A DNA stretch of 64,000 nt from a virus, in IMG/VR virus record IMGVR_UViG_3300033997_000074, positions 1 to 64,000 of that record; one strand, 5' to 3'. Of this stretch, positions 4,037 through 49,787 are shown piece by piece. Within the stretch, counting starts at the first letter, position 1, and the number at the start of each line of letters is the position of its first letter. The position numbers and the translations under genes are program-made. The notes beneath the pieces are model-generated. The model had not been told where the DNA came from and did no database searches. It saw only the letters and a program-made list of their open reading frames with translations.

Positions 4037-5098
4037 TTAAACCAGCGACAGACGAACGATAGCACCCGGATTCAGCAGAGCGTTCAGGAAGTTTTGCTCA
4101 GTCATAATCTCGATGATGTCATCTTTCTCGTTCATGTACTCGAACCAGTAGCTACCCTGAGCACGGCGGTTGATGGTGCCGAAACGGTTAGCAGGAGCGA
4201 AGTAGGTCTTGAACATATCACGAACACCAACAGGCATCATGTAGGCATCACCTTCCGGTACGAACGGAACGAAAGTGCCAGCAGCGTTTTCATAACCGGC
4301 AGCACCTGCGTTGATGAAGGTGATACCGAACAGGTCAACATACTCAAAGCGAGCATCGGTAGCCAGCGACTGCGGCTGACCCAGCAGAACAGCAAGGCTT
4401 TGTGCGCCAGCGTCAGACTTCATTGCATCGGTAACATAGGGGTTCAGCAGCAGTGCGTTGAAGAAGCTGTCCGAAGCCAGAACAACGAAGCGGCGGATGG
4501 TGCCAGCTTGACCACCAGTCAGGCCAGCACGAACAGCTTTCTTGGCATCAGCGAAGTCGCCACGCGGGTCAACCGAAGCTGCCAGATTAACACCAATCTC
4601 TTCACGAGTAATACCAAACTCGGTGTAGTAGTTGGTCGATACAGTGCCGTTCGGAGCATAGACAGTACCGGCAGTGATAAGCTGCATACGAGCGGCTTCA
4701 AGGGTCAGACCATGAGCTTCACGCAGGTCAAACATCTTGTCAGCACGGACGTTAGCAACGCTTTCCAGCTCAGCGGCTTCAGCCATAGAGTTGGCAGAAA
4801 CAATACCATCGATGTCATTCGGGGTGATAGCGTCATCTGCCGGGAAGTGCGGAATCTTGAGCAGCAGCGAGTCGCGTTGACGACCAGCGATAGTTTGGTT
4901 ACGCTCATCCCAGTTACGGTCTTCCAACAGAGTGGAGCCACGCTTGGTGCGGGTGATTTCAACAGTCTTCTGACTGGAGAAGGTCGGAGTGAACAGACCA
5001 AGTGCGTTGGTGATACCTACAGTGTTCGGGATTTGAATCAGGCTGTCGGTACGGTCAACTACCTTAGTGCGGTCATTCGGGTTAATTACGAGAGGCAT
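4037..5098 (-). CDS. Major capsid protein, lambda gpE-like
   Basis: 353 aa. The order protease-decoration-capsid matches lambda C/Nu3-D-E. The C-terminal pattern FVPEGDAYMMP...IMTEQNFLNALLNPGAIVRLSL parallels the lambda gpE end as recalled. Confidence 0.85.
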   Translation of the reverse strand: MPLVINPNDRTKVVDRTDSLIQIPNTVGITNALGLFTPTFSSQKTVEITRTKRGSTLLEDRNWDERNQTIAGRQRDSLLLKIPHFPADDAITPNDIDGIVSANSMAEAAELESVANVRADKMFDLREAHGLTLEAARMQLITAGTVYAPNGTVSTNYYTEFGITREEIGVNLAASVDPRGDFADAKKAVRAGLTGGQAGTIRRFVVLASDSFFNALLLNPYVTDAMKSDAGAQSLAVLLGQPQSLATDARFEYVDLFGITFINAGAAGYENAAGTFVPFVPEGDAYMMPVGVRDMFKTYFAPANRFGTINRRAQGSYWFEYMNEKDDIIEIMTEQNFLNALLNPGAIVRLSLV

Positions 5099-5145
5099 AT
5101 TTTAACTTTCCTTTATTTAATTAATAACGTGGCAAAATATGCCGA

Positions 5146-5604
5146 TTACTTGGTTTCCAGAACCACGATACCTTGCTTTTCCAGCACTTCTTTCAGAGAA
5201 GCAAACTGAGCATCGGTAAGCGGGGTGCCGAGGGTGTCAGCGAACTGGCGAATGTAGTATTCTTTCAGTTGCAGGCCACCAGAATGACCAACAAAACCAA
5301 CAGCGTTATACTGACCAGCAACAATGGCACGCGGAACGAACGAGGGGTTGAAGCTGTAATGGTCGCCGTAAATAACAGCAAACTCATTGGTTTCTGCGAT
5401 TTGAGCAGCGGCGCTCAGAACTGCGTAAGCGCCTTCAGGGTCAGTACCCTTGGCACGGTAAACAACAGTGCCGATTTCAACAGCAGCGCCACCAGCCGGG
5501 GGAGTGACGTTTACACATTTACGGCCATAACCAACACTCGGATCAATTTCGTGAACAACGAGGTCAGACAGGCGCTTGGAGTAAGGCATGGTTACGAAAG
5601 GCAT
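5146..5604 (-). CDS. Head decoration protein (gpD-like, positional)
   Basis: 152-aa ORF immediately upstream of the capsid gene, as in lambda-like head modules. Confidence 0.5.
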   Translation of the reverse strand: MPFVTMPYSKRLSDLVVHEIDPSVGYGRKCVNVTPPAGGAAVEIGTVVYRAKGTDPEGAYAVLSAAAQIAETNEFAVIYGDHYSFNPSFVPRAIVAGQYNAVGFVGHSGGLQLKEYYIRQFADTLGTPLTDAQFASLKEVLEKQGIVVLETK

Positions 5605-5622
5605 ATTTTAAATTCCTTTAAA

Positions 5623-6996
5623 TTAACGGTTTTGAAGACGGGCTTGAATCAGCGCATCGGTAGTGGAAGTTTTCGGAGCAGCGGTCTCTTCAACAGAAGC
5701 CTCTACGCCTTGATCACCGACCTCGGTGAACATCTCACTGTTTTCAAGAGCTTTAGCTTGAGCAGCCATAGCGCCTACAACAGTGGAGAATGCAGCGTCG
5801 TCCAGAGAAGACAGGGAAGCAGCCAGAGCTTCTACTTGGTCAGCGGAAGTGACAGCAGCCAGCTTGTCTTTACGAGCTTGCAATTTCTGCTCTGCTTTCT
5901 CTTGTTCCAGTTGTGCAACCAGAGCTTGAGCATCAGCCAGAGCGGTTTCTTTTTCACCCAGAGCAGCTTCAAGAGCAGCCTTCAGTTGGGTCATATCTTC
6001 AAGGGATGCTTGAAGAGTAGTAACTTGTGCCTGATAGTCAGACAGTTGAGTTTGAAGCTCTTCGAGCTTTGGCATATCCACGGACATATTAGGAGTTACC
6101 TCATTCTTCATAAATTTAAAAATACGATTGTTCATTTCTTTCCCGGTCTTATTAGATTGGGCCTCTGACGACAAGTAAGAGTAGAAGTCTTCCAGAGTCA
6201 TTATTTTATCAGCTAGACCCAAAGCAACAGCTTCTTCTGAAAGAAACGTTTTAGCTTCGGTATTCCTCACTGCTTCCACGGACATGCCACGATGTTCTGC
6301 AACATATTCAGTGAAATCTTTGTAGAGAGCATCCACTTTATTTTGAAGGTCTTGAATAAATTCTTTTCGGAAACTTCCGTCTTCAGCAAAAGGAATTTTT
6401 TCTGATCCTGCTGTAACAAAGGTTCGCTCATAGCCTTTCTGTTCAAGGGCTTTTGAATCATTCATCAAGCGGATAAGAACCCCGACCGATCCAATCTCAG
6501 ATTGCTTGTTCGAAACAATTTCGTCGGAGATTGCGGTAAGTCCATATGCTGCCGATGCACTAAGGCCATCCACATAACTAATGATTCGTACACCGTTCTC
6601 ATCTGCTAGTTTTCGCAGATAATTACCAGTGTCCATCATTCCGTAAGCTTCACCACCACCAGACTCAACCATAAAAGCAATGGTCTTGGCACCTTCAACA
6701 ACAAGAGATTCGAAGTCTTCTTTAATACTCTCGTAAGAAGTTCCACCACAGAGAGCTTCCCACCCGGTAGACTTGTTGGTCAGAGGGCCAGTGATGCTGA
6801 TTACACCAAGATTATTTTCAGCGTAATAGAGTGTGTCATACATCGAAAACTCTAGAGAATCTTCTTTAGTCTCCAGTACAGCACCACCTTCACAACGCTT
6901 GTCCAAATAATTCATCACCGATTCGAAGGTGCGAGGGTCGATCAACAAAGGAGTGTCGAACATCTTGCTTCTTAGGCGAGTGAGTTCATGTGCCAT
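5623..6996 (-). CDS. Prohead protease (S49/SppA, lambda gpC-like) fused to a coiled-coil scaffold domain
   Basis: ESGGGEAYGM and DGLSASAAYG motifs fit the S49 ClpP fold. The C-terminal roughly 150 aa is heptad-rich (LEELQTQLSDYQAQVTTLQASLEDMTQLKAALEAALGEKE...). Confidence 0.85.
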   Translation of the reverse strand: MAHELTRLRSKMFDTPLLIDPRTFESVMNYLDKRCEGGAVLETKEDSLEFSMYDTLYYAENNLGVISITGPLTNKSTGWEALCGGTSYESIKEDFESLVVEGAKTIAFMVESGGGEAYGMMDTGNYLRKLADENGVRIISYVDGLSASAAYGLTAISDEIVSNKQSEIGSVGVLIRLMNDSKALEQKGYERTFVTAGSEKIPFAEDGSFRKEFIQDLQNKVDALYKDFTEYVAEHRGMSVEAVRNTEAKTFLSEEAVALGLADKIMTLEDFYSYLSSEAQSNKTGKEMNNRIFKFMKNEVTPNMSVDMPKLEELQTQLSDYQAQVTTLQASLEDMTQLKAALEAALGEKETALADAQALVAQLEQEKAEQKLQARKDKLAAVTSADQVEALAASLSSLDDAAFSTVVGAMAAQAKALENSEMFTEVGDQGVEASVEETAAPKTSTTDALIQARLQNR

Positions 6997-13829: not shown

Positions 13830-14039
13830 CTAATTATTGCTAATATTCATGATAAAACAGATATTTTCTGTCAAATCTTCAAATTGATAGCTTTTTACGT
13901 CCATATACTCTAGCACTTCGGTATCTCGAATACACCTGTTACACATATCCTCTTCAATGAAAAGTCCCTCGAACTCTTCACCATCTTTATACCTCACTGC
14001 CCCAACGAGGGGTACGTCACAACATTTACATCTACTCAT
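13830..14039 (-). CDS. Small Cys-rich (zinc-ribbon-like) protein
   Basis: 69 aa with CKCC...CNRC. Confidence 0.45.
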   Translation of the reverse strand: MSRCKCCDVPLVGAVRYKDGEEFEGLFIEEDMCNRCIRDTEVLEYMDVKSYQFEDLTENICFIMNISNN

Positions 14040-14778
14040 CTCTTACGTATCCTATTTCTCTTTCAAAATCTTGTGGAAGTTTACCGCTCTTTCTTAAGTT
14101 ACAGGTTGGACACAAAAGCTGGAGGTTAGAAGGCCAGTTGCTTCCTCCTTTTGAGAGTGGCATAATATGGTCTATGTGGTAACCCGTGAATTCAAAGTCA
14201 GCTTTGCAGTATATACACTGACTATCTTGGGCGATCAACAGTATGTCTATATCAGATTTTGTGAACGAACCTTCGGAAGACAGAAATAATCTTCGTCTTT
14301 CCATTGAATTAAGACGACGGTATGGTCTATACTCTTCTTTTAGTTGCTGTATGCAAGCGATACATTTACCAGATTCTGTTTCTCTGTTTGATAAATGATT
14401 CCTTTTACAAGGAAGTCCGGTGTTGTATTCAGGCTCTCCAATAGCCTTAGCAATTTCCCTTGTCCTTGGCACTAAATCTAATTCTTCATTTCCAAATGTA
14501 CAGTTGCTGAGAAGTTCAAGACTTTCCCTCTCATCTAAATCTGCAAGATTCTCTTTTAATGCTTCAAATGCTTTCTTGGCATTGACTTTTCTTTGCAGTT
14601 TTAGGTCTACGATTGATTTCCAGTTGTTACTGTTTTCTTGATTATCTTCTGCAACGCAATCAAGGCACTTGCCGGAAGAAGTTAATCTTTCAGCTAAGTG
14701 CCCTCTTTTACATTCTTCACCGTCAAAATAAGATTTTAAACCTAACTTCCTTGCCTCCGCTCTAGTAGTGAGGCAAAT
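14032..14778 (-). CDS. HNH endonuclease with duplicated N-terminal zinc-ribbon repeats; probable ATT start
   Basis: IDHIMPLSKGGSNWPSNLQLLCPTCN. The frame stays open and protein-like for 102 codons upstream of the ORF-track GTG (...GEECKRGHLAERLTSSGKCLDCV repeats ...GLPCKRNHLSNRETESGKCIACI). AGGAGG lies 8 nt before an in-frame ATT at 14778. Confidence 0.65.
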   Translation of the reverse strand: MCLTTRAEARKLGLKSYFDGEECKRGHLAERLTSSGKCLDCVAEDNQENSNNWKSIVDLKLQRKVNAKKAFEALKENLADLDERESLELLSNCTFGNEELDLVPRTREIAKAIGEPEYNTGLPCKRNHLSNRETESGKCIACIQQLKEEYRPYRRLNSMERRRLFLSSEGSFTKSDIDILLIAQDSQCIYCKADFEFTGYHIDHIMPLSKGGSNWPSNLQLLCPTCNLRKSGKLPQDFEREIGYVRDE

Positions 14779-15081: not shown

Positions 15082-15759
15082 TTATTTCCTCTCCGTAAAA
15101 CAGAATTTATTTTCACCAAGAACGTCTTTCCATGCTGCGTGCATTGTACCTGACTTCAAAAGTGCAATCAATGCTACATCGTCCCTTGTCTTGACTTCGT
15201 GGTCACTGACGAACAGTGGCTGTAAGTTCTCTAGTGAATTACAATATACCCGCTGGTGCTCATCCGTCAAGTCAAAAGCGCCCATTGGAATGATGTGGTC
15301 AAGCTGCCACACAACGCCATGATTATTCCAATCCATCCCTTCAGAAAACTTACTCTCTATATTCGACATGAAGTCCTCTCTAGAGTAACCCAAAAGCGAG
15401 AAGGTGTTTGAAGATTTACCTTCTTCAATTGACTTAAACACTCTCTTTATACAGTCCCTTAAAATTGATGATGCTCTGAATTTTGGATCATTCCTGTATC
15501 GCTCCTTCTGCCGCCGAACCATAGATTTGTAAGCCTTCTCTTTATTTTCATTAAAATACCTACGTTTTCCCCTACGAGTACAAACAGCGCATCTGTTGGT
15601 AGATGTCAATCGAACAGGTAAGTGACCATTTCTACACGGCTTTGAGTGTATAAAAACAAAATCGCCTTTGAGCCTAGCTTCATCCGCAGTAGTCGCTAAT
15701 TCATCCAGTCGATCTATACAATCTTTCAAGTAAATCTCGTTTTCTTCTTCCTTATTCAT
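15082..15759 (-). CDS. HNH endonuclease
   Basis: WQLDHIIPMGAFD...NLQPLFVSDHEVK and N-terminal SKPCRNGHLPVRLTSTNRCAVC. ATG 15759 forms an ATGA overlap with the upstream stop. Confidence 0.75.
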   Translation of the reverse strand: MNKEEENEIYLKDCIDRLDELATTADEARLKGDFVFIHSKPCRNGHLPVRLTSTNRCAVCTRRGKRRYFNENKEKAYKSMVRRQKERYRNDPKFRASSILRDCIKRVFKSIEEGKSSNTFSLLGYSREDFMSNIESKFSEGMDWNNHGVVWQLDHIIPMGAFDLTDEHQRVYCNSLENLQPLFVSDHEVKTRDDVALIALLKSGTMHAAWKDVLGENKFCFTERK

Positions 15760-16274
15760 CAGAACGGGTCTTCCATATCCATCCAACTCGGTGTTGGTTC
15801 GTAATATTGTGGTGGTCGTGAATGTTCTGCTGTCTGCTTAGGTGAACCTCTCCACTCATTCACCTTCTTAGCTGGTTTCGTTTCTGATTTCCAGAAATCT
15901 TCCTCGACAACACCAAGCTCGATAAATTCTTTAGATAATCCTTGGGTCTTCTGTTGATACAGGTTCAGTGGAGCAACATTCTCATATCGCCAATTCTTGT
16001 GTTGACCACTACTACCTTTGTTCGCAACAATAATCTCGTTGTCTATGAATGATCGTAGAATCCTGCCCGTCTGCTTAAGACTCACACCCGAAAGCTCGGA
16101 AATGTCTTCCTGCTTGTCGAAGTGTTTGTCAAAGAAGGCGTTCCTCTTCTTCATCACGACATAGATATTCTTCTCGTTAGCTGTCAGTTCTATCAGCTCT
16201 CCAGAAGACGGGTGAATGTATCCAGTAGCCCGCATAAGCTTTTCTGGGTATTTATAAAAAATCGTTTCTTCCAT
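15759..16274 (-). CDS. Winged-helix/HTH DNA-binding protein (candidate regulator)
   Basis: ISELSGVSLKQTGRILRSFIDNEII is HTH-like. The gene lies close to the divergent control region, with one small ORF (16314..16451) in between. Confidence 0.5.
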   Translation of the reverse strand: MEETIFYKYPEKLMRATGYIHPSSGELIELTANEKNIYVVMKKRNAFFDKHFDKQEDISELSGVSLKQTGRILRSFIDNEIIVANKGSSGQHKNWRYENVAPLNLYQQKTQGLSKEFIELGVVEEDFWKSETKPAKKVNEWRGSPKQTAEHSRPPQYYEPTPSWMDMEDPF

Positions 16275-16313
16275 ATTTTCTTACCTCAGTTCTATAGTTT
16301 TGTGGGTAAGGCA

Positions 16314-16451
16314 TCACTTATTCGTAGTGCCCTTTATTTCATCAATCTCAACCAGCTTAACAAGGCACTGAACAATGAACGATTGTCGGGACATCGGACC
16401 TCGATTGGCATCCACCCATCCCAGCACCTTAAACGGTAGTTTCAAATTCAT
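16314..16451 (-). CDS. Small 45-aa ORF, first gene leftward of the divergent control region
   Basis: Manual translation: GAGGAAGATTT ATG, MNLKLPFKVLGWVDANRGPMSRQSFIVQCLVKLVEIDEIKGTTNK. Confidence 0.35.
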   Translation of the reverse strand: MNLKLPFKVLGWVDANRGPMSRQSFIVQCLVKLVEIDEIKGTTNK

Positions 16452-16487
16452 AAATCTTCCTCATAAGCAGTTAAGTCCTTTGTCATG

Positions 16488-16729
16488 GGACATCGTGTCC
16501 TATAACGTTTTGTCTCATTAAATTCGCTCTGCTCTTGCACACAACAAAATAATATAGGCTTCGCCTCTAAAAGCATGAAGAGCTTTGCTAAATACAAGAT
16601 AACACAAACAGACAAAGAGTCAAGGGACTTAATGTCCCATAATAGATTTTCTATCTCTCTTATTCTATCTGTATTATCTATCTCTCTATTGGGCCATCGT
16701 GTCCTATAAATGTAGGACTTTAAGTCCTA
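16488..16729. promoter_or_regulatory. Cluster of GGAC-N5-GTCC palindromes (operator-like) plus TCTATCTCTCT direct repeats
   Basis: GGACatcgtGTCC at 16488-16500, GGACttaatGTCC at 16625-16637, GGCCatcgtGTCC at 16692-16704, GGACtttaaGTCC at 16715-16727, and direct repeats at 16648-16692. Confidence 0.5.
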
Positions 16730-16843
16730 TCACAAAGACAAGAAGTCCTATGACATGCAGGTCTAGCAGAGATGTTCATAGTGTTTCACACCCATCCCCT
16801 CCTGTCAACACACAAAACAAATAAATTTCCTTGAAGAAATTGC

Positions 16844-25122: not shown

Positions 25123-25529
25123 TGGCACACAATAAAGAGCTAGCAAAGCAACAAGGAATCTCACAAGAAGCTTGTGTTGCGATTGACGTGCTTCATAAGA
25201 TGCGTGAACAGATTGTATCACGTCCGGATATGTTCTTCGATAACACTGAGGATGCTGTAGAAGCTCTACATGGAATTTCTTTTGCTCTTCAGTGGATTTG
25301 GAAATTTCCTCTTGACAAGAAAATGCACAAAGATGTGTTTGATTTTGAATTCAATCGTATGTGGGCAGGGTTGAAGTATAAATGCACCAAGACTGGAGAA
25401 ATCTTTACAATCCCAGAAAACGTAAAGGAGTGTGATTTCTTCCAATTTGGTGAAGCTTTTATTGATGTTGGGCGTCGAGGCTCTTATTGTCGTCTGAGTG
25501 GGTGCATTAGCGTAGGAGAGGGTGATTGA
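25122..25529 (+). CDS. Hypothetical protein
   Basis: 135-aa ORF in a packed array. Confidence 0.5.
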   Translation: MAHNKELAKQQGISQEACVAIDVLHKMREQIVSRPDMFFDNTEDAVEALHGISFALQWIWKFPLDKKMHKDVFDFEFNRMWAGLKYKCTKTGEIFTIPENVKECDFFQFGEAFIDVGRRGSYCRLSGCISVGEGD

Positions 25530-44308: not shown

Positions 44309-44430
44309 TTCTTAGCCTCCAGAGTTTGAATACGTTCAGAGAGCTGTGCAATCTTCTCGTCTTGTTTCATGTTAACTGCACTAGCAAAAAGAAGAGAAAT
44401 TCCTAGTAAGATAGTAGTCATTGTATTCAT
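44305..44430 (-). CDS. 41-aa membrane peptide
   Basis: Manual translation: MNTMTTILLGISLLFASAVNMKQDEKIAQLSERIQTLEAKK. ATGA overlap with the next gene. Confidence 0.4.
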   Translation of the reverse strand: MNTMTTILLGISLLFASAVNMKQDEKIAQLSERIQTLEAKK

Positions 44431-44633
44431 TTAGTCAACACCTCAATCAGTCGATCCTTGTTCTCGATAATCCCTTTTACAATGTCGTCCTCATCCAAAT
44501 CCCGATAATAGAACGAATGCACAATACTTTCAACAGCTTTTTCAAACTGAATTTCGTTTTCGTATTCCTCAGCCTCTTCTTTTGTATCAAACAAATGTCC
44601 ATAAGAGTGCCACATCGTCACTTGCTCAACCAT
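44427..44633 (-). CDS. Hypothetical 68-aa protein
   Basis: ORF track; GGAGGAATAGAAA ATG. Confidence 0.5.
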   Translation of the reverse strand: MVEQVTMWHSYGHLFDTKEEAEEYENEIQFEKAVESIVHSFYYRDLDEDDIVKGIIENKDRLIEVLTK

Positions 44634-44668
44634 TTTCTATTCCTCCAAAAGTATCAGTTGTTTGGCAT

Positions 44669-44698
44669 ACTTTACAATGCGTTTTGTGTCATCGTCAA
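44669..44698 (-). promoter_or_regulatory. Candidate promoter
   Basis: TTGACG-18 nt-TAAAGT. Confidence 0.35.
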
Positions 44699-44814
44699 CA
44701 CCTATTTCTTACTAATTTTACAGAATTGGTTGTCACCAACCTCCTCTTTCCAAGCTTTCCTCATTGCATCATACAGCACCTGCTCAGCACTTGCACGACA
44801 GATGTAGCTGTCAG

Positions 44815-45423
44815 TTAGTGCAACCCGTCTAGTTCGTCTTCTACACCACACCTAAAGTCATATAATCCCTCAGGGTGTGCATAATGTGAAAACATTTGTG
44901 CGCTGAATTCATATGAGGCTATATCATCGGTTTTATCTATAGTGATTACTCTTGTACCTGTGGGCAATTCTATAACATAGAGTGCTAAACCTGCTTGTAT
45001 TAATGTCTCAAGAAGGTTTGCCTCTGTTTCTGTGTTAGGGAAGACGTCCTCTATTTTCTGCCTATAGGCCTTCTTCTCTCGTTCTTCTATTGACCAGTTA
45101 CTTCCTATTAATTTTATGTCTCTAATGGTCCTTAGATTTGGCTTTATGATGGGGTTGTGTTTGATGACCCTATTATACAAATTATCAATGTCATTTCTTA
45201 TCATATCTGCTTCAAGGGTTTTTGCATCTTCCTCAGAGAGGCCCTTTTTAACAATCTCCACATCCATAACCTTGCCAGCAAAGAAATCTCGGTTTAACTC
45301 TGGACAAGAACTAACGCCCGATGTGCAGTGCTTGTACCGGTCTTTCTTACCCATTCCAATGTACTTTACCACCCCATCTACCTTGCAAACATATACATAA
45401 TATACACCAGATGTCTTCGGCAT
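44815..45423 (-). CDS. GIY-YIG homing endonuclease
   Basis: SGVYYVYVCKVDGVVKYIGMGKKDRYKHC...LEADMI...LYN. Confidence 0.8.
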   Translation of the reverse strand: MPKTSGVYYVYVCKVDGVVKYIGMGKKDRYKHCTSGVSSCPELNRDFFAGKVMDVEIVKKGLSEEDAKTLEADMIRNDIDNLYNRVIKHNPIIKPNLRTIRDIKLIGSNWSIEEREKKAYRQKIEDVFPNTETEANLLETLIQAGLALYVIELPTGTRVITIDKTDDIASYEFSAQMFSHYAHPEGLYDFRCGVEDELDGLH

Positions 45424-45999
45424 TTTAAATCCCCCTTTAAATTTTAGATAAACCTACCCTCTCTCATTCCCTGCAACTACCCAGCAGGCACCAACGCGCC
45501 CACCTGAATACACTCAGTATTCTAAGGATAATCACATCTGCTCAGTAAAGCAGAAGGAGAACAAGATTCTATCTCTCAAGGCACACAGCATTGCCTTAAC
45601 CACCTTCCCCGTAGGTGGCATTCCCTTGGTGACTTAACCCTCACCACTATAAGACGCTACGACTGTCGCAGGTATTCACGTCAAACAGGCAGAAAACAAA
45701 TTTCTTTCTTTTCTTACGGGCCTTCTCTTCCGAGATTCCATTATGCAGGTCACTGGTTGACAGAGGTCGTCATTGCCAGCACTAACTTTTCAGTATCCGT
45801 CATTTGTCTCACCAATTGCTTCCGTGCAATCTCAACAAATCGGTTTGTGTCAGGTTTTGCTTTTGGTCGCTGAACCGAGGGAACCATGCCGAAACGCCTC
45901 TTTGAATCTATGTTGGTAATAGTACCACCGAATTTCTACTCTGCAACTATCTTTACACAATCTTTACATTTCTCTCAGTCCCATACCTTTTCTTCCCTA
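45424..45999 (-). ncRNA. Candidate long structured leader/ncRNA upstream of the GIY-YIG gene
   Basis: No credible ORF on either strand, with stops in all minus-strand frames. Purine-rich on the minus strand. Many local hairpins, e.g. CCACC-TACGGGGAA-GGTGG, AAGGCA-ATGCTGTG-TGCCTT, CCTGC-TGGGTAGT-TGCAGG. A promoter-like site lies at 46006-46034. Confidence 0.35.
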
Positions 46000-46005
46000 C
46001 CCCTA

Positions 46006-46034
46006 ATTCTCCGCCTTCCTCTCCTAAATGTCAA
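46006..46034 (-). promoter_or_regulatory. Candidate promoter driving the long leader
   Basis: TTGACA-17 nt-GAGAAT on the minus strand. Confidence 0.4.
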
Positions 46035-46165
46035 CACACCATCCCCTACAATTTCTTCTATCATGCTCTGCATCCTCGATAGAAATTTACAATTATGCTT
46101 TCTGAGATGTTGATGTAAAATATGCCCATCGACAACAGAAAGCCGAAGAGGCTAGGAGAGAAGAT

Positions 46166-46762
46166 ATGAAGGATTTTGAAGCAGAAATTAAGCACCTACA
46201 AGATAGCATTTCGCCACTGATTGCTGAGCGGGATAAACTTAATAGGAAAATAATGTCTATTAACGATAAAATCAAGAAGGTTAGACAAGAGCAGGAAACC
46301 TGTCAAATGGCTTCGGGAATGACAAAAGAAGAGAAGATTGAGTATTTTCTTTTTGAAGATGGTTTGGTAGACGGCGAGCGGTATAAAGCACGTCAAAAGT
46401 TTTGGAGTTCTATGAGGCTTCGCCAGTCGGGTTATTTCCCAGAAACGGAACAAATCCAACTTGAGCTTATGCTATACAAAGGTATCGGTGATAATTTAGA
46501 ACAGACCGTTACTGCTCTGGAAGAGGTATTACCTTTCATAAAGCCGCTCAAGGGAGTGAAGCACCTTAAGATTTTTGAACACACCTTGTCAGAATATGGT
46601 AGCTACAGGGTTGAGATTTCTGAAACCTCCTTTGATGTGGTTGTATGGACCTACGGTCGTAAGAGCACCGTAAAATCTTTTGACAATCTTCGTTCTATGG
46701 TTCAGTATGTCCAACAACACCACTACTACGAAAGCTCGGTAGACGAGGATAACGAAGAATGA
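46166..46762 (+). CDS. Hypothetical 198-aa protein (N-terminal coiled coil)
   Basis: ORF track; SD AGGAGAGAAG upstream. Confidence 0.55.
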   Translation: MKDFEAEIKHLQDSISPLIAERDKLNRKIMSINDKIKKVRQEQETCQMASGMTKEEKIEYFLFEDGLVDGERYKARQKFWSSMRLRQSGYFPETEQIQLELMLYKGIGDNLEQTVTALEEVLPFIKPLKGVKHLKIFEHTLSEYGSYRVEISETSFDVVVWTYGRKSTVKSFDNLRSMVQYVQQHHYYESSVDEDNEE

Positions 46763-48725: not shown

Positions 48726-49787
48726 ATGAAACACATCAAGACCTTGAAAGTCCGTGTCCGAGACAAGCATCAACCGCTGCTGAACCAAATGGCGCGTTCA
48801 GTCAACTTTGTCTGGAACTACGTGAACGAACTTAGTCACCGCTCTATTAAAGAGCGTGGTGTGTTTTTGTCTGCCTACGATATGCATCCCTACACAAAAG
48901 GGGCTCACAAAGAGCTGGGACTGCACAGTCACACGGTTCAGAAAGTGTGTGCTGAGTACGCCACCCGTCGTAAGCAGTTCAAGAAGGCGCGGCTAAACTG
49001 GCGTAAAACCGGAGGTGCTCGCCGCTCGTTAGGATGGGTTCCAATCAATACCGGCATGGCGAAGTGGAAAAACGGGCAGGTGTACTACAACGGACACTAC
49101 TTCAAGGTCTGGGACAGCTACGGGCTTTCCAACTACAAGTTTCGCTCCGCGTCGTTTAATGAGGACGCCCGTGGTCGCTGGTATTTCAATGTCGCGGTAG
49201 AAGTTGAGGCGGACATGCCAGTCGGTCAAGACAAGATCGGTATCGACCTTGGTCTGAAAGATACCGCCACCTGCTCTGACGGAACCAAGCTAGAGGCTGG
49301 TCGGTTCTACCGCGATATGGAATCGAATCTGGCTGTTGCACAACGCGCAAGAAAGAAAAAACGTGTCAGAAACATTCACGCCAAGATAGCTAATCGTCGA
49401 AAAGACGCATTGCACAAGTTCAGCCGTCAACTGGTAAACCGTGCGGGTGAAATCTATGTTGGTAATGTTAGTAGTAGCAAACTCGTTAAAACCAAGATGG
49501 CCAAGTCAGTGTTGGACGCTGGCTGGGCTATGCTGAAAACAATGCTGGAATACAAATGCGATAGCGCAGGCATTGTTTTTAAGGAAGTTAACGAGGCATA
49601 CACCACCCAGACCTGCTCGTGCTGCGGTTGTATTTCCGGCAGCAGCCCAAAGGGTAGAACAGGTTTGCGAATAAGAGAGTGGACTTGCAGTGAGTGTGGT
49701 GTCACTCACGACCGTGATGTAAACGCGGCCAAGAACATTCTTGCGGTCGGGCATGGCCGTCCTGTAGAGGGAATCCCCGTCCTTTAG
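48726..49787 (+). CDS. tnpB: TnpB (IS605 OrfB-family RuvC-like nuclease), catalytic residues apparently intact
   Basis: GIDLGLKD (Asp), VNEAYTTQTCSCCG (Glu plus CxxC), CSECGVTHDRDVNAAKNI (CxxC plus Asp). 353 aa. Confidence 0.85.
   Translation: MKHIKTLKVRVRDKHQPLLNQMARSVNFVWNYVNELSHRSIKERGVFLSAYDMHPYTKGAHKELGLHSHTVQKVCAEYATRRKQFKKARLNWRKTGGARRSLGWVPINTGMAKWKNGQVYYNGHYFKVWDSYGLSNYKFRSASFNEDARGRWYFNVAVEVEADMPVGQDKIGIDLGLKDTATCSDGTKLEAGRFYRDMESNLAVAQRARKKKRVRNIHAKIANRRKDALHKFSRQLVNRAGEIYVGNVSSSKLVKTKMAKSVLDAGWAMLKTMLEYKCDSAGIVFKEVNEAYTTQTCSCCGCISGSSPKGRTGLRIREWTCSECGVTHDRDVNAAKNILAVGHGRPVEGIPVL

Follow-up and report, generated by a model that had tools for sequence, protein, structure and literature searches.

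A conserved ~460-nt non-coding element next to a homing-endonuclease-like gene in metagenomic phages is a candidate for a new structured RNA family

A sharply bounded element in a divergent intergenic region

The 64,000-nucleotide (nt) window analysed here (positions 1-64,000 of the IMG/VR virus record IMGVR_UViG_3300033997_000074, whose numbering is used throughout) contains a 742-nt divergent intergenic region (45424-46165) that is poor in open reading frames (ORFs). It is bordered on the left by a minus-strand gene of 202 amino acids (aa; 44815-45423) and on the right by a plus-strand gene of 198 aa (46166-46762, phrog_7208). The promoter-distal ~460 nt of this region (~45912-45453, minus strand) form a sharply bounded island that is 94-100% identical in 13 distinct metagenomic phage contigs, while its flanks, the 202-aa gene included, drop to 40-75% identity. 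This element is probably a stand-alone gene for a structured non-coding RNA of about 460 nt, belonging to an undescribed family. A first-pass annotation had singled out the stretch as an ORF-free, hairpin-dense leader of a GIY-YIG nuclease gene; its central idea, that the stretch is not junk and probably encodes a structured RNA, is supported. Compared contigs and loci are designated by L-numbers, and proteins by P-numbers.

Contigs were gathered through a look-up of homologues of the 202-aa protein, DNA pattern scans and a metagenome scan that added four contigs. Identity to the window, computed per 50 nt, was 88-100% from 45900 to 45451 in L008, L009, L015, L029, L016 and L039. The flanking bins ranged from 24 to 92% and were mostly at 40-70%, the high values all coming from close relatives; in the divergent genomes L008, L009 and L016, they stayed at 24-70%, with the exception of one bin at 84%. 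An nhmmer profile limits the element to 45904-45453. The 5′ end used here is inferred from the position of a promoter-like site (P3, see below), and the 3′ end from the fall in conservation. The contrast with the surroundings is such that, in L009, the helicase gene (70%) is the only other sequence detectable by blastn across 12.6 kb. It also extends to the immediate neighbour: the element and the adjacent GIY-YIG ORF have nucleotide identities to the window of 96.7 versus 66.5% in L008, 94.5 versus 53.2% in L009, 98.5 versus 55.5% in L039 and 94.8 versus 75.2% in L013. A lack of conservation in relatives, which the annotation had considered, was thus not what we found; conservation is extreme in all 13 copies. 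Because the adjacent endonuclease genes diverge and, as detailed below, substitutions spare base pairs, we argue that the element is under purifying selection.

Within the window, nhmmer found neither a second copy of the element nor a long antisense target. Loci retrieved through synteny with the primase-helicase gene yielded no further copy and revealed instead the replacement allele of L033 described below. Each end of the contig IMGVR_UViG_3300035637_000015 (90,069 nt; L014/L040) holds half of the element, which means that its assembly was cut open within the element. The ends of many other contigs, too, lie in this locus or close to it, which fits a population-level polymorphism that breaks assemblies. 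Eight IMG/VR loci (L018-L025) were rejected as copies, since they share only the exact 21-mer TTGAGAGATAGAATCTTGTTC, a chance match. All eight come from a single lineage of unrelated phages, where the 21-mer overlaps a gene's stop codon, and they are a caution for pattern scans in general.

The claim that no credible ORF precedes the nuclease start codon was confirmed. Only short ORFs occur in 45424-46165, the longest having 75 aa (45886-46113, plus strand), 48 aa and 45 aa (45750-45887), and none of them is kept across all copies. The 45-aa ORF has lost its ATG in L009 and L016, and a 47-aa antisense ORF is also lost in some copies, the window among them. The sole ORF common to all copies is an invariant one of 29 codons, which has no ribosome-binding site at a usable Shine-Dalgarno spacing and shows two non-synonymous changes versus one synonymous site. 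No frame of the element gave a Rfam, Pfam or PHROG signal, a search of the 2.1-kb region against 50,697 GenBank phage records for near and distant DNA similarity returned no match, and ARAGORN found no tRNA or tmRNA genes. The minus strand had also been described as strongly purine-rich, which applies to 45912-46060 (70% purine) and not to the whole leader (58.8%) or its conserved part (56.6%). The genome-wide sense-strand mean is 55.6 +/- 2.6%, and 37% of 460-nt windows equal or exceed the bias of the conserved part.

Evidence for an RNA fold

For a single sequence, the reported hairpin density is modest, with minimum free energy (MFE) z-scores of -2.2 for the minus strand and -1.2 for the plus strand. 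RNAalifold, applied to 12 copies, gave a consensus fold of 113 pairs. Four of the five stems named in the annotation are part of it (GGTGA/TCACC, CCACC/GGTGG, AAGGCA/TGCCTT and CTGCT/AGCAG), while CCTGC/GCAGG is replaced by an alternative pairing. The best-supported part of the fold is its 3′ two-thirds, a domain closed by the pairing of 45721-45718 with 45459-45456 that holds these hairpins. On the consensus structure, 99.8% of alignment cells are paired (three cells are unpaired), against 37-47% when the partners are slid by one to three columns. Compensatory double changes were observed in two pairs, from A-U to U-A in three copies and from U-A to C-G in two copies, and one-sided changes between G-U and G-C or A-U affect 10 pairs. 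The fold includes about 21 G-U pairs and would therefore be specific to the minus strand.

Since the consensus structure derives from the same sequences, a non-circular test was added in which the window's own MFE fold served as the reference. Of the 62 unique substitutions, 33 affect unpaired positions, which make up 35% of the total, and only 13 break a pair, compared with 26.2 +/- 3.3 expected under random placement (P<1e-4). Taken together, the covariation evidence for an RNA fold is suggestive; it is limited because the copies vary so little.

The element belongs to no Rfam family. The comparison with Rfam models that had been proposed as a check (Rfam 15) returned no match in this region when the whole window was scanned at the gathering score, and none at E<=10 for either the 2.1-kb region or the 521-nt element. 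In particular, there was no match to the models of GOLLD, ROOL, OLE, HEARO, raiA, RNase P, tmRNA or 6S.

Promoter-like sites and organisation of the locus

The features of the locus are as follows.

46006-46034, minus strand: sigma-70-like promoter site P1 (TTGACA-17-GAGAAT), from the promoter scan
45949-45968, minus strand: tandem TGTAAAGAT boxes, two of the three exact copies in the window
45919-45946, minus strand: P3, promoter-like site of the candidate RNA, with a pattern kept in nine of nine 5′-complete copies
45453-45912, minus strand: conserved ~460-nt non-coding element, candidate structured RNA (conservation, nhmmer profile)
45424-45452, minus strand: linker GTTTATCTAAAATTTAA and the nuclease gene's Shine-Dalgarno sequence; start of the variable cargo
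44815-45423, minus strand: 202-aa GIY-YIG-like gene, putative free-standing homing endonuclease (fold model, invariant residues, presence/absence)
44705-44812, minus strand: 3′ remnant (last 36 codons) of a phrog_4756-family gene (phrog_4756 match at E 4.9e-5, tblastn)
44640-44699, minus strand: 3′ remnant (last 20 codons) of an HD-domain gene (75% identity to the C-terminus of the L029 HD_4 protein)

P1 had been noted previously and was recovered by our promoter scan. It is kept as TTGCTT-17-TAGAAT in L008 and L009, and the same site precedes an intact 422-aa gene in L033. A second site, P3, lies directly ahead of the element. In the window, it consists of TTGCAG (45946-45941), a 16-nt spacer and TGgTACTAT (-10 hexamer at 45924-45919). 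The corresponding sequences are TTGAAA, 16 nt and TGgTAAGGT in L008; TTGACT, 18 nt and TGtTAAGGT in L016; and TTGCAA, 16 nt and TGaTAGTGT in L029. All nine 5′-complete copies thus share TTGnnn, a spacer of 16-18 nt and TGnTAnnnT, with the other bases varying, and the -10 hexamer is always 20 nt ahead of the conserved block. An extended -10 promoter would look like this, and it would place the start of the transcript near 45912. Two copies of TGTAAAGAT, 11 nt apart, are found directly upstream of P3 and are kept in every copy of the locus except L016; the third and last exact copy in the window is at 25401-25409. The tandem boxes are a possible regulator-binding site. Upstream of the start of the nuclease gene, the promoter scan detected no promoter-like site of the gene's own.

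Several observations weigh against the element being an RNA gene. The case is built from DNA, and covariation is thin because the copies are 94-100% identical: double changes affect two of 113 pairs, a count reached in 102 of 500 shuffles. Most of the pair-breaking substitutions fall in the 5′ third, where the fold is not established. Near-identity even in predicted loops exceeds what secondary structure by itself explains and could partly reflect recent horizontal spread. The family is also narrow, as pattern scans of IMG/VR with the 3′ half and the 5′ half retrieved only the same four contigs, and those of 185,579 reference genomes retrieved no copy. P3 is weak relative to the consensus in its -35 hexamer, and the site falls below the threshold of a generic promoter scan. 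Finally, no terminator was found after the element in the scan, so that a discrete RNA would need processing, or the RNA may occur as a leader only.

One element, four downstream arrangements

What follows the element differs among copies. A GIY-YIG-like gene is present in the window, L004, L008, L009, L013 and L039, whereas L015, L030 and L014 have a gene for a 246-aa HNH endonuclease (PF01844, E 4e-5). L029 has two genes behind the element, one for a 95-aa zinc-ribbon protein and one for a 137-aa HD-domain protein of the HD_4 type (HD_4 E 4e-6, just under the Pfam cut-off). No gene follows in L016, where the next promoter-like site is found after 92 nt. The linker GTTTATCTAAAATTTAA is common to all copies except L016, and the GIY-YIG, HNH and 95-aa-gene versions diverge right after it. 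The junction after ...TCTAAAATTTAA is identical in GIY-YIG, HNH and endonuclease-free versions. Endonuclease genes are, therefore, present or absent at a fixed site among otherwise collinear contigs, and because of this pattern we read the 202-aa gene as a putative free-standing homing endonuclease gene.

The assignment of its product to the GIY-YIG nucleases needs qualification. No Pfam or PHROG profile matched the protein at E<0.1, and a profile of eight homologues compared with the PDB by sequence found no GIY-YIG chain, while the fold model and the invariant residues support a GIY-YIG domain. The AlphaFold2 model has a mean predicted local distance difference test (pLDDT) score of 76, with residues ~8-90 at 84-93. 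Its top Foldseek matches in the PDB are PD-T4-3 (E 4e-3, probability 1.0), the GIY-YIG N-terminal domain of UvrC (0.96-0.99) and T4 EndoII, with E-values that are marginal. Y8 in (V/I)YY, Y21 in Y(I/V)G, R29, H32, E71 and N84 are invariant in eight homologues that are 32-76% identical to the window protein; by analogy with I-TevI, we take these residues to have the corresponding catalytic roles. We accept the protein as a GIY-YIG enzyme, at best a divergent one.

The range of arrangements bears directly on the functions that had been proposed for the leader. A leader dedicated to limiting nuclease expression does not agree with the cargo of the other copies, which is an HNH gene in L015, L030 and L014, a pair of non-nuclease genes in L029 and absent in L016, nor with the element's own promoter-like site. 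An RNA partner or guide of the GIY-YIG enzyme, by analogy with omega RNAs or bridge RNAs, can be set aside as having next to no probability. Adjacency in the six GIY-YIG-bearing copies is all that speaks for it. The RNA candidate also occurs with HNH genes, with non-nuclease genes and alone, and nhmmer detected no such element in contigs with more distant GIY-YIG homologues (P0006 in L037, P0008 in L036). Moreover, in same-layout contigs the homologues of the 202-aa protein are 76, 65, 49 and 49% identical at the protein level, and the nuclease ORF is 53-75% identical where the candidate RNA is 94.5-98.5% identical. A nearly invariant RNA next to a protein that falls to 49% identity is the opposite of a co-evolving pair, and no segment of the RNA varies as a guide would.

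A broader version of the leader idea is that the element acts in cis for the whole leftward operon, through processive antitermination, transcript stabilisation or gating of translation, and limits the inserted endonuclease only incidentally. We consider this improbable and place it third, behind the origin or primer role discussed below. The element does have a promoter-like site immediately before it and opens a long cluster of same-strand genes, with no terminator, with an ORF starting 25-30 nt later in most copies, and with a nuclease gene that has no promoter-like site of its own. On the other hand, the first downstream gene differs among copies, in four arrangements, and the next genes in L016 have their own promoter-like site. 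A stretch of 460 nt at 94-100% identity is also atypical of a cis regulator; known antitermination or leader RNAs, put and EAR among them, are several times shorter and much less conserved.

Replacement of a polymerase-like gene and the remnants it left

A contig without the element, L033, shows what can occupy the same position. Its flanks share 90-98% identity with the window, except for two short stretches at 76-83%. P1 and the downstream promoter-like site are the same as in the window, but they enclose an intact 422-aa gene (4409-5677, minus strand; protein P0009) and a 105-aa gene. Comparing the HNH-bearing contigs with L033 places one breakpoint directly behind the -10 hexamer of P1 and the other at the codons for VHDSF in the 422-aa gene. 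The replaced stretch in those contigs contains the boxes, P3, the element and the HNH gene, and the last 49-51 codons of the 422-aa gene are retained.

A similar stump is found in the window. The 49-codon ORF at 44702-44851, which had been listed as a weak gene candidate, is the 3′ remnant of a longer gene. Its last 36 codons match positions 404-438 of the 440 positions of phrog_4756 (E 4.9e-5), and tblastn relates 44705-44812 to the C-terminal ends of proteins of 446-450 aa from phages of Vibrio and Aeromonas. The N-terminal part of a phrog_4756-type protein is absent from the window, according to tblastn searches with three family members. The stump starts at the HDS motif (...TDSY) and comes from a different family member than that of L033. 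Across endonuclease-bearing versions, stumps comprise the last 36-51 codons. As both the window and the HNH stumps start at the HDS motif, two endonuclease families are inserted at the same motif.

The second remnant, 44640-44699, is what is left of an HD-domain gene, which is reduced to its last codons in the window, L015, L016 and L033. It carries the ribosome-binding site of the next gene (44427-44633) and a promoter-like site (TTGACG-18-TAAAGT, 44698-44669), and these two signals may be the reason for its retention. The full-length HD_4-type protein of L029, encoded with the zinc-ribbon gene at 1216-1913, may be an alarmone hydrolase.

These stumps give some substance to the view that the whole stretch is a decayed pseudogene, which had been raised previously and which is correct for the 49-codon ORF only. 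For the element itself, we regard pseudogene decay as extremely improbable. It is the best-conserved sequence of the region, all six frames of the leader lack a PHROG match at E<=10, phrog_4756 included, with no trace of a pseudogene, and nhmmer finds no similarity between the element and the L033 allele.

The phrog_4756 family (P0009-P0128) comprises more than 245 clusters at E<=1e-3, with full-length identity of ~50%, many of which are located on contigs of 83-94 kb. No member has a Pfam domain or an informative name. The model of the 422-aa protein (pLDDT 88, predicted template modelling score 0.85) begins with a winged helix, and without exception the top matches in the PDB are family-A polymerases or single-subunit RNA polymerases, including Aquifex Pol I (E 9e-6), Pol theta, mitochondrial RNA polymerases and T7 RNA polymerase. 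Invariant residues of the family include E235 and D237 ("EVDF") and H372-D373-S374 ("VHDSF"). Judging from the model, this ~420-aa family may be an unusually compact, undescribed polymerase of the T7 RNA polymerase/Pol I family. We found no description of this protein or of the candidate RNA in the literature, which is weak negative evidence.

The position of the right junction raises the question of an intron, of some class, that contains an endonuclease ORF and interrupts the polymerase-like gene at its HDS motif. In both GIY-YIG and HNH versions, this junction falls at the VHDSF codons, the most conserved motif of the 422-aa family, and such a motif is a classic intron or homing site. The genome also holds two true group I introns. 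The region lacks group I blocks, as the first-pass annotation had stated, and the Rfam library that found the two introns elsewhere in the window gave no group I or group II match for the element alone at E<=10. No 5′ exon exists upstream of the element or elsewhere in the window, where the 36-codon 3′ stump is the only exon-like sequence. In addition, L029 and L016 have the element without the stump, and the element has its own promoter-like site. The proposal of a different intron class is thus largely refuted, and we consider it very improbable.

An origin or other DNA-level function as the main alternative

The strongest competitor of the RNA gene, itself unlikely in our estimation, is an element that acts at the DNA level: a replication origin, an R-loop-forming, origin-priming transcript in the manner of ColE1 RNA II or the T4 origin transcripts, or DNA recently swept through these phages by endonuclease-driven conversion, in which case near-identity would be a sign of young age rather than of function. 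Its position is suggestive. The element lies at the switch between leftward and rightward gene clusters, where the cumulative GC skew reaches its minimum (~46000-46200), and ~5 kb from the primase-helicase and DNA polymerase genes. The allelic gene of L033 has a model that resembles family-A polymerases, with the winged-helix N-terminus. The distribution of the element is patchy, since the closely related L033 lacks it while the distant L009 has it, and its loops are conserved as well as its stems. Co-conversion of flanking DNA by homing endonucleases is described in a published account (PMC2790892).

Against this stand the enrichment of substitutions at unpaired positions, the sparing of pairs and the G-U pairs that make the fold specific to one strand. 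These count against a DNA-level explanation because neutral sequence, or sequence conserved as DNA, would show neither pair-sparing nor strand specificity. The promoter signature is at a fixed distance from the block, and the element itself has no iterons or AT-rich stretch. As for a sweep, the adjacent endonuclease genes are 53-75% identical, and a single recent event cannot give 94-98% identity in the flank alone.

Proposed mechanism

If the element is a structured RNA gene, its transcription by the host's RNA polymerase would start at the extended -10 promoter that it possesses, where the leftward gene cluster begins. The gene of GIY-YIG type would be that of a homing endonuclease established at the 3′ boundary of the RNA gene and is probably expressed by read-through, since it has no promoter of its own, starts 29 nt downstream and is not separated from the element by a terminator. 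The RNA would in effect be the 5′ leader of the nuclease gene, yet not one dedicated to the nuclease. The slot is a recombination hot spot, with cargo differing among relatives. Endonucleases encoded there would cut the HDS-motif sequence of intact 422-aa-type alleles, and repair from the endonuclease-bearing phage would transfer both genes, for endonuclease and RNA, in one event. The stump and, at the opposite end, the P1 region common to both alleles would provide the homology arms. Two published accounts report that free-standing endonucleases mobilise flanking DNA and mark boundaries of genetic exchange between phages (PMC2790892, PMC10448857). Our best guess for the RNA is a trans-acting early RNA (a decoy, a scaffold or a ribozyme-like molecule). 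We prefer this to a cis regulator because the element persists whatever the cargo, and also where there is none.

Comparison with known systems

T4-like phages harbour the free-standing seg and mob homing endonucleases, of which segB lies in the tRNA gene cluster and mobE mobilises neighbouring DNA. The locus in the window shares several traits with them. Its nuclease gene has no surrounding intron or intein and is present or absent in collinear genomes; it stands at the edge of a highly conserved gene, here the candidate RNA gene, and of exchanged segments; and its slot can be occupied by either of two nuclease families, GIY-YIG or HNH. It differs in that the conserved neighbour is a 460-nt RNA candidate, not a tRNA or protein gene, and in that insertion is linked to a replacement in which the larger part of a polymerase-like gene is lost; cleavage and homing are predictions here. 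The general behaviour of free-standing homing endonuclease genes beside conserved genes of T4-like phages is treated in three papers (PMC2790892, PMC10448857, PMC13096335). By analogy, the locus may work like T4-type free-standing homing-endonuclease sites, with a new large RNA candidate as the conserved neighbour.

The element can also be compared with large orphan structured RNAs, namely GOLLD and ROOL from phages and metagenomes, and OLE, raiA and HEARO from bacteria. Like this group, it spans several hundred nucleotides, has many predicted hairpins, including some with GNRA-type loops, is strongly conserved and encoded by phages, and has a function that is not evident from its context. It differs in matching none of their Rfam models, as reported above. 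It is also confined to one clade of phage contigs of ~83-90 kb, with no tRNA genes nearby, and shows almost no sequence variation, which makes the structural support weaker.

Mobile group I introns in phage polymerase genes offer another parallel, in that an endonuclease gene adjoins a structured RNA and the junction falls at catalytic-motif codons of a polymerase-like gene. The element departs from them in having no 5′ exon and no group I core, in having its own promoter-like site and in occurring outside the gene context. Finally, ColE1 RNA II and the phage T4 origin transcripts are primer RNAs made by host RNA polymerase. The likeness would consist of a promoter-driven structured transcript of ~0.5 kb at a strand switch and GC-skew minimum near replication genes. 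Unlike ColE1 RNA II, no RNA I-type antisense promoter-like site appeared in the scan, and the conservation of the element is far above the known needs of a primer.

Other nuclease and mobile genes in the window and in related loci

At least three nuclease genes occur in the 64-kb window, along with the two group I introns. The latter (RF00028; 615-905 and 10037-10301, minus strand; 80 and 97 bits) are located among the structural genes, near those for the tail sheath and the large terminase. A second endonuclease-invaded locus is found at 15082-16274 (minus strand). It consists of a winged-helix ORF of 171 aa and, after it, an HNH ORF of 234 aa that ends in ~20 residues similar to the C-terminus of phrog_4756 proteins. 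Positions 1101-2300 of L037 have the same layout, with a GIY-YIG gene (P0006) replacing the HNH gene. Just after the GIY-YIG gene of L009, positions 6622-6685 match 15137-15075 of the window at 83%. A 146-aa ORF at 14032-14472 (minus strand) contains an HNH motif (HIDHIMPLSKGG...NLQLLCPTCN).

Stretches with no or nearly no ORFs accompany GIY-YIG or HNH genes elsewhere, at 4234-5200 of L036, 403-1100 of L037 and 16275-16843 of the window, the last of which holds a conserved 45-aa ORF. Downstream in L036, there are also a CRISPR_assoc (PF08798) gene and a helicase gene. On the plus strand of the window, a 353-aa ORF at 48726-49787, ~2.6 kb from the element, matches phrog_506, annotated as "transposase" (E 5e-83), and may be TnpB-like. 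This ORF is a recent insertion, because it is absent at the same position in L004, L015, L031 and L033.

Implications

Few non-coding RNAs are both large and strongly conserved, and the discovery of a new class has usually brought unexpected biology to light. The candidate described here is a useful one, with clean boundaries, its own promoter-like site and alleles that amount to natural "knock-outs" or "replacements". A polymerase-like gene takes its place in L033, and the endonuclease gene is missing from L016 and L029, so its function would be testable given a host-phage pair. A more speculative extension, to which we give little credence at present, is that the element is a large phage RNA that is functional by itself and replaces a compact family-A-like polymerase, the endonucleases spreading this exchange of RNA for protein. 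Such an RNA might be a primer or scaffold made by the host polymerase, or it might be ribozyme-like. If true, this would explain both the mutually exclusive RNA and 422-aa alleles and the near-total retention of the nucleotide sequence. More generally, the locus illustrates how two families of free-standing homing endonucleases can drive the exchange of whole functional modules between phages, a process that would use a conserved catalytic-motif sequence as the target and the remaining gene stump as a homology arm.

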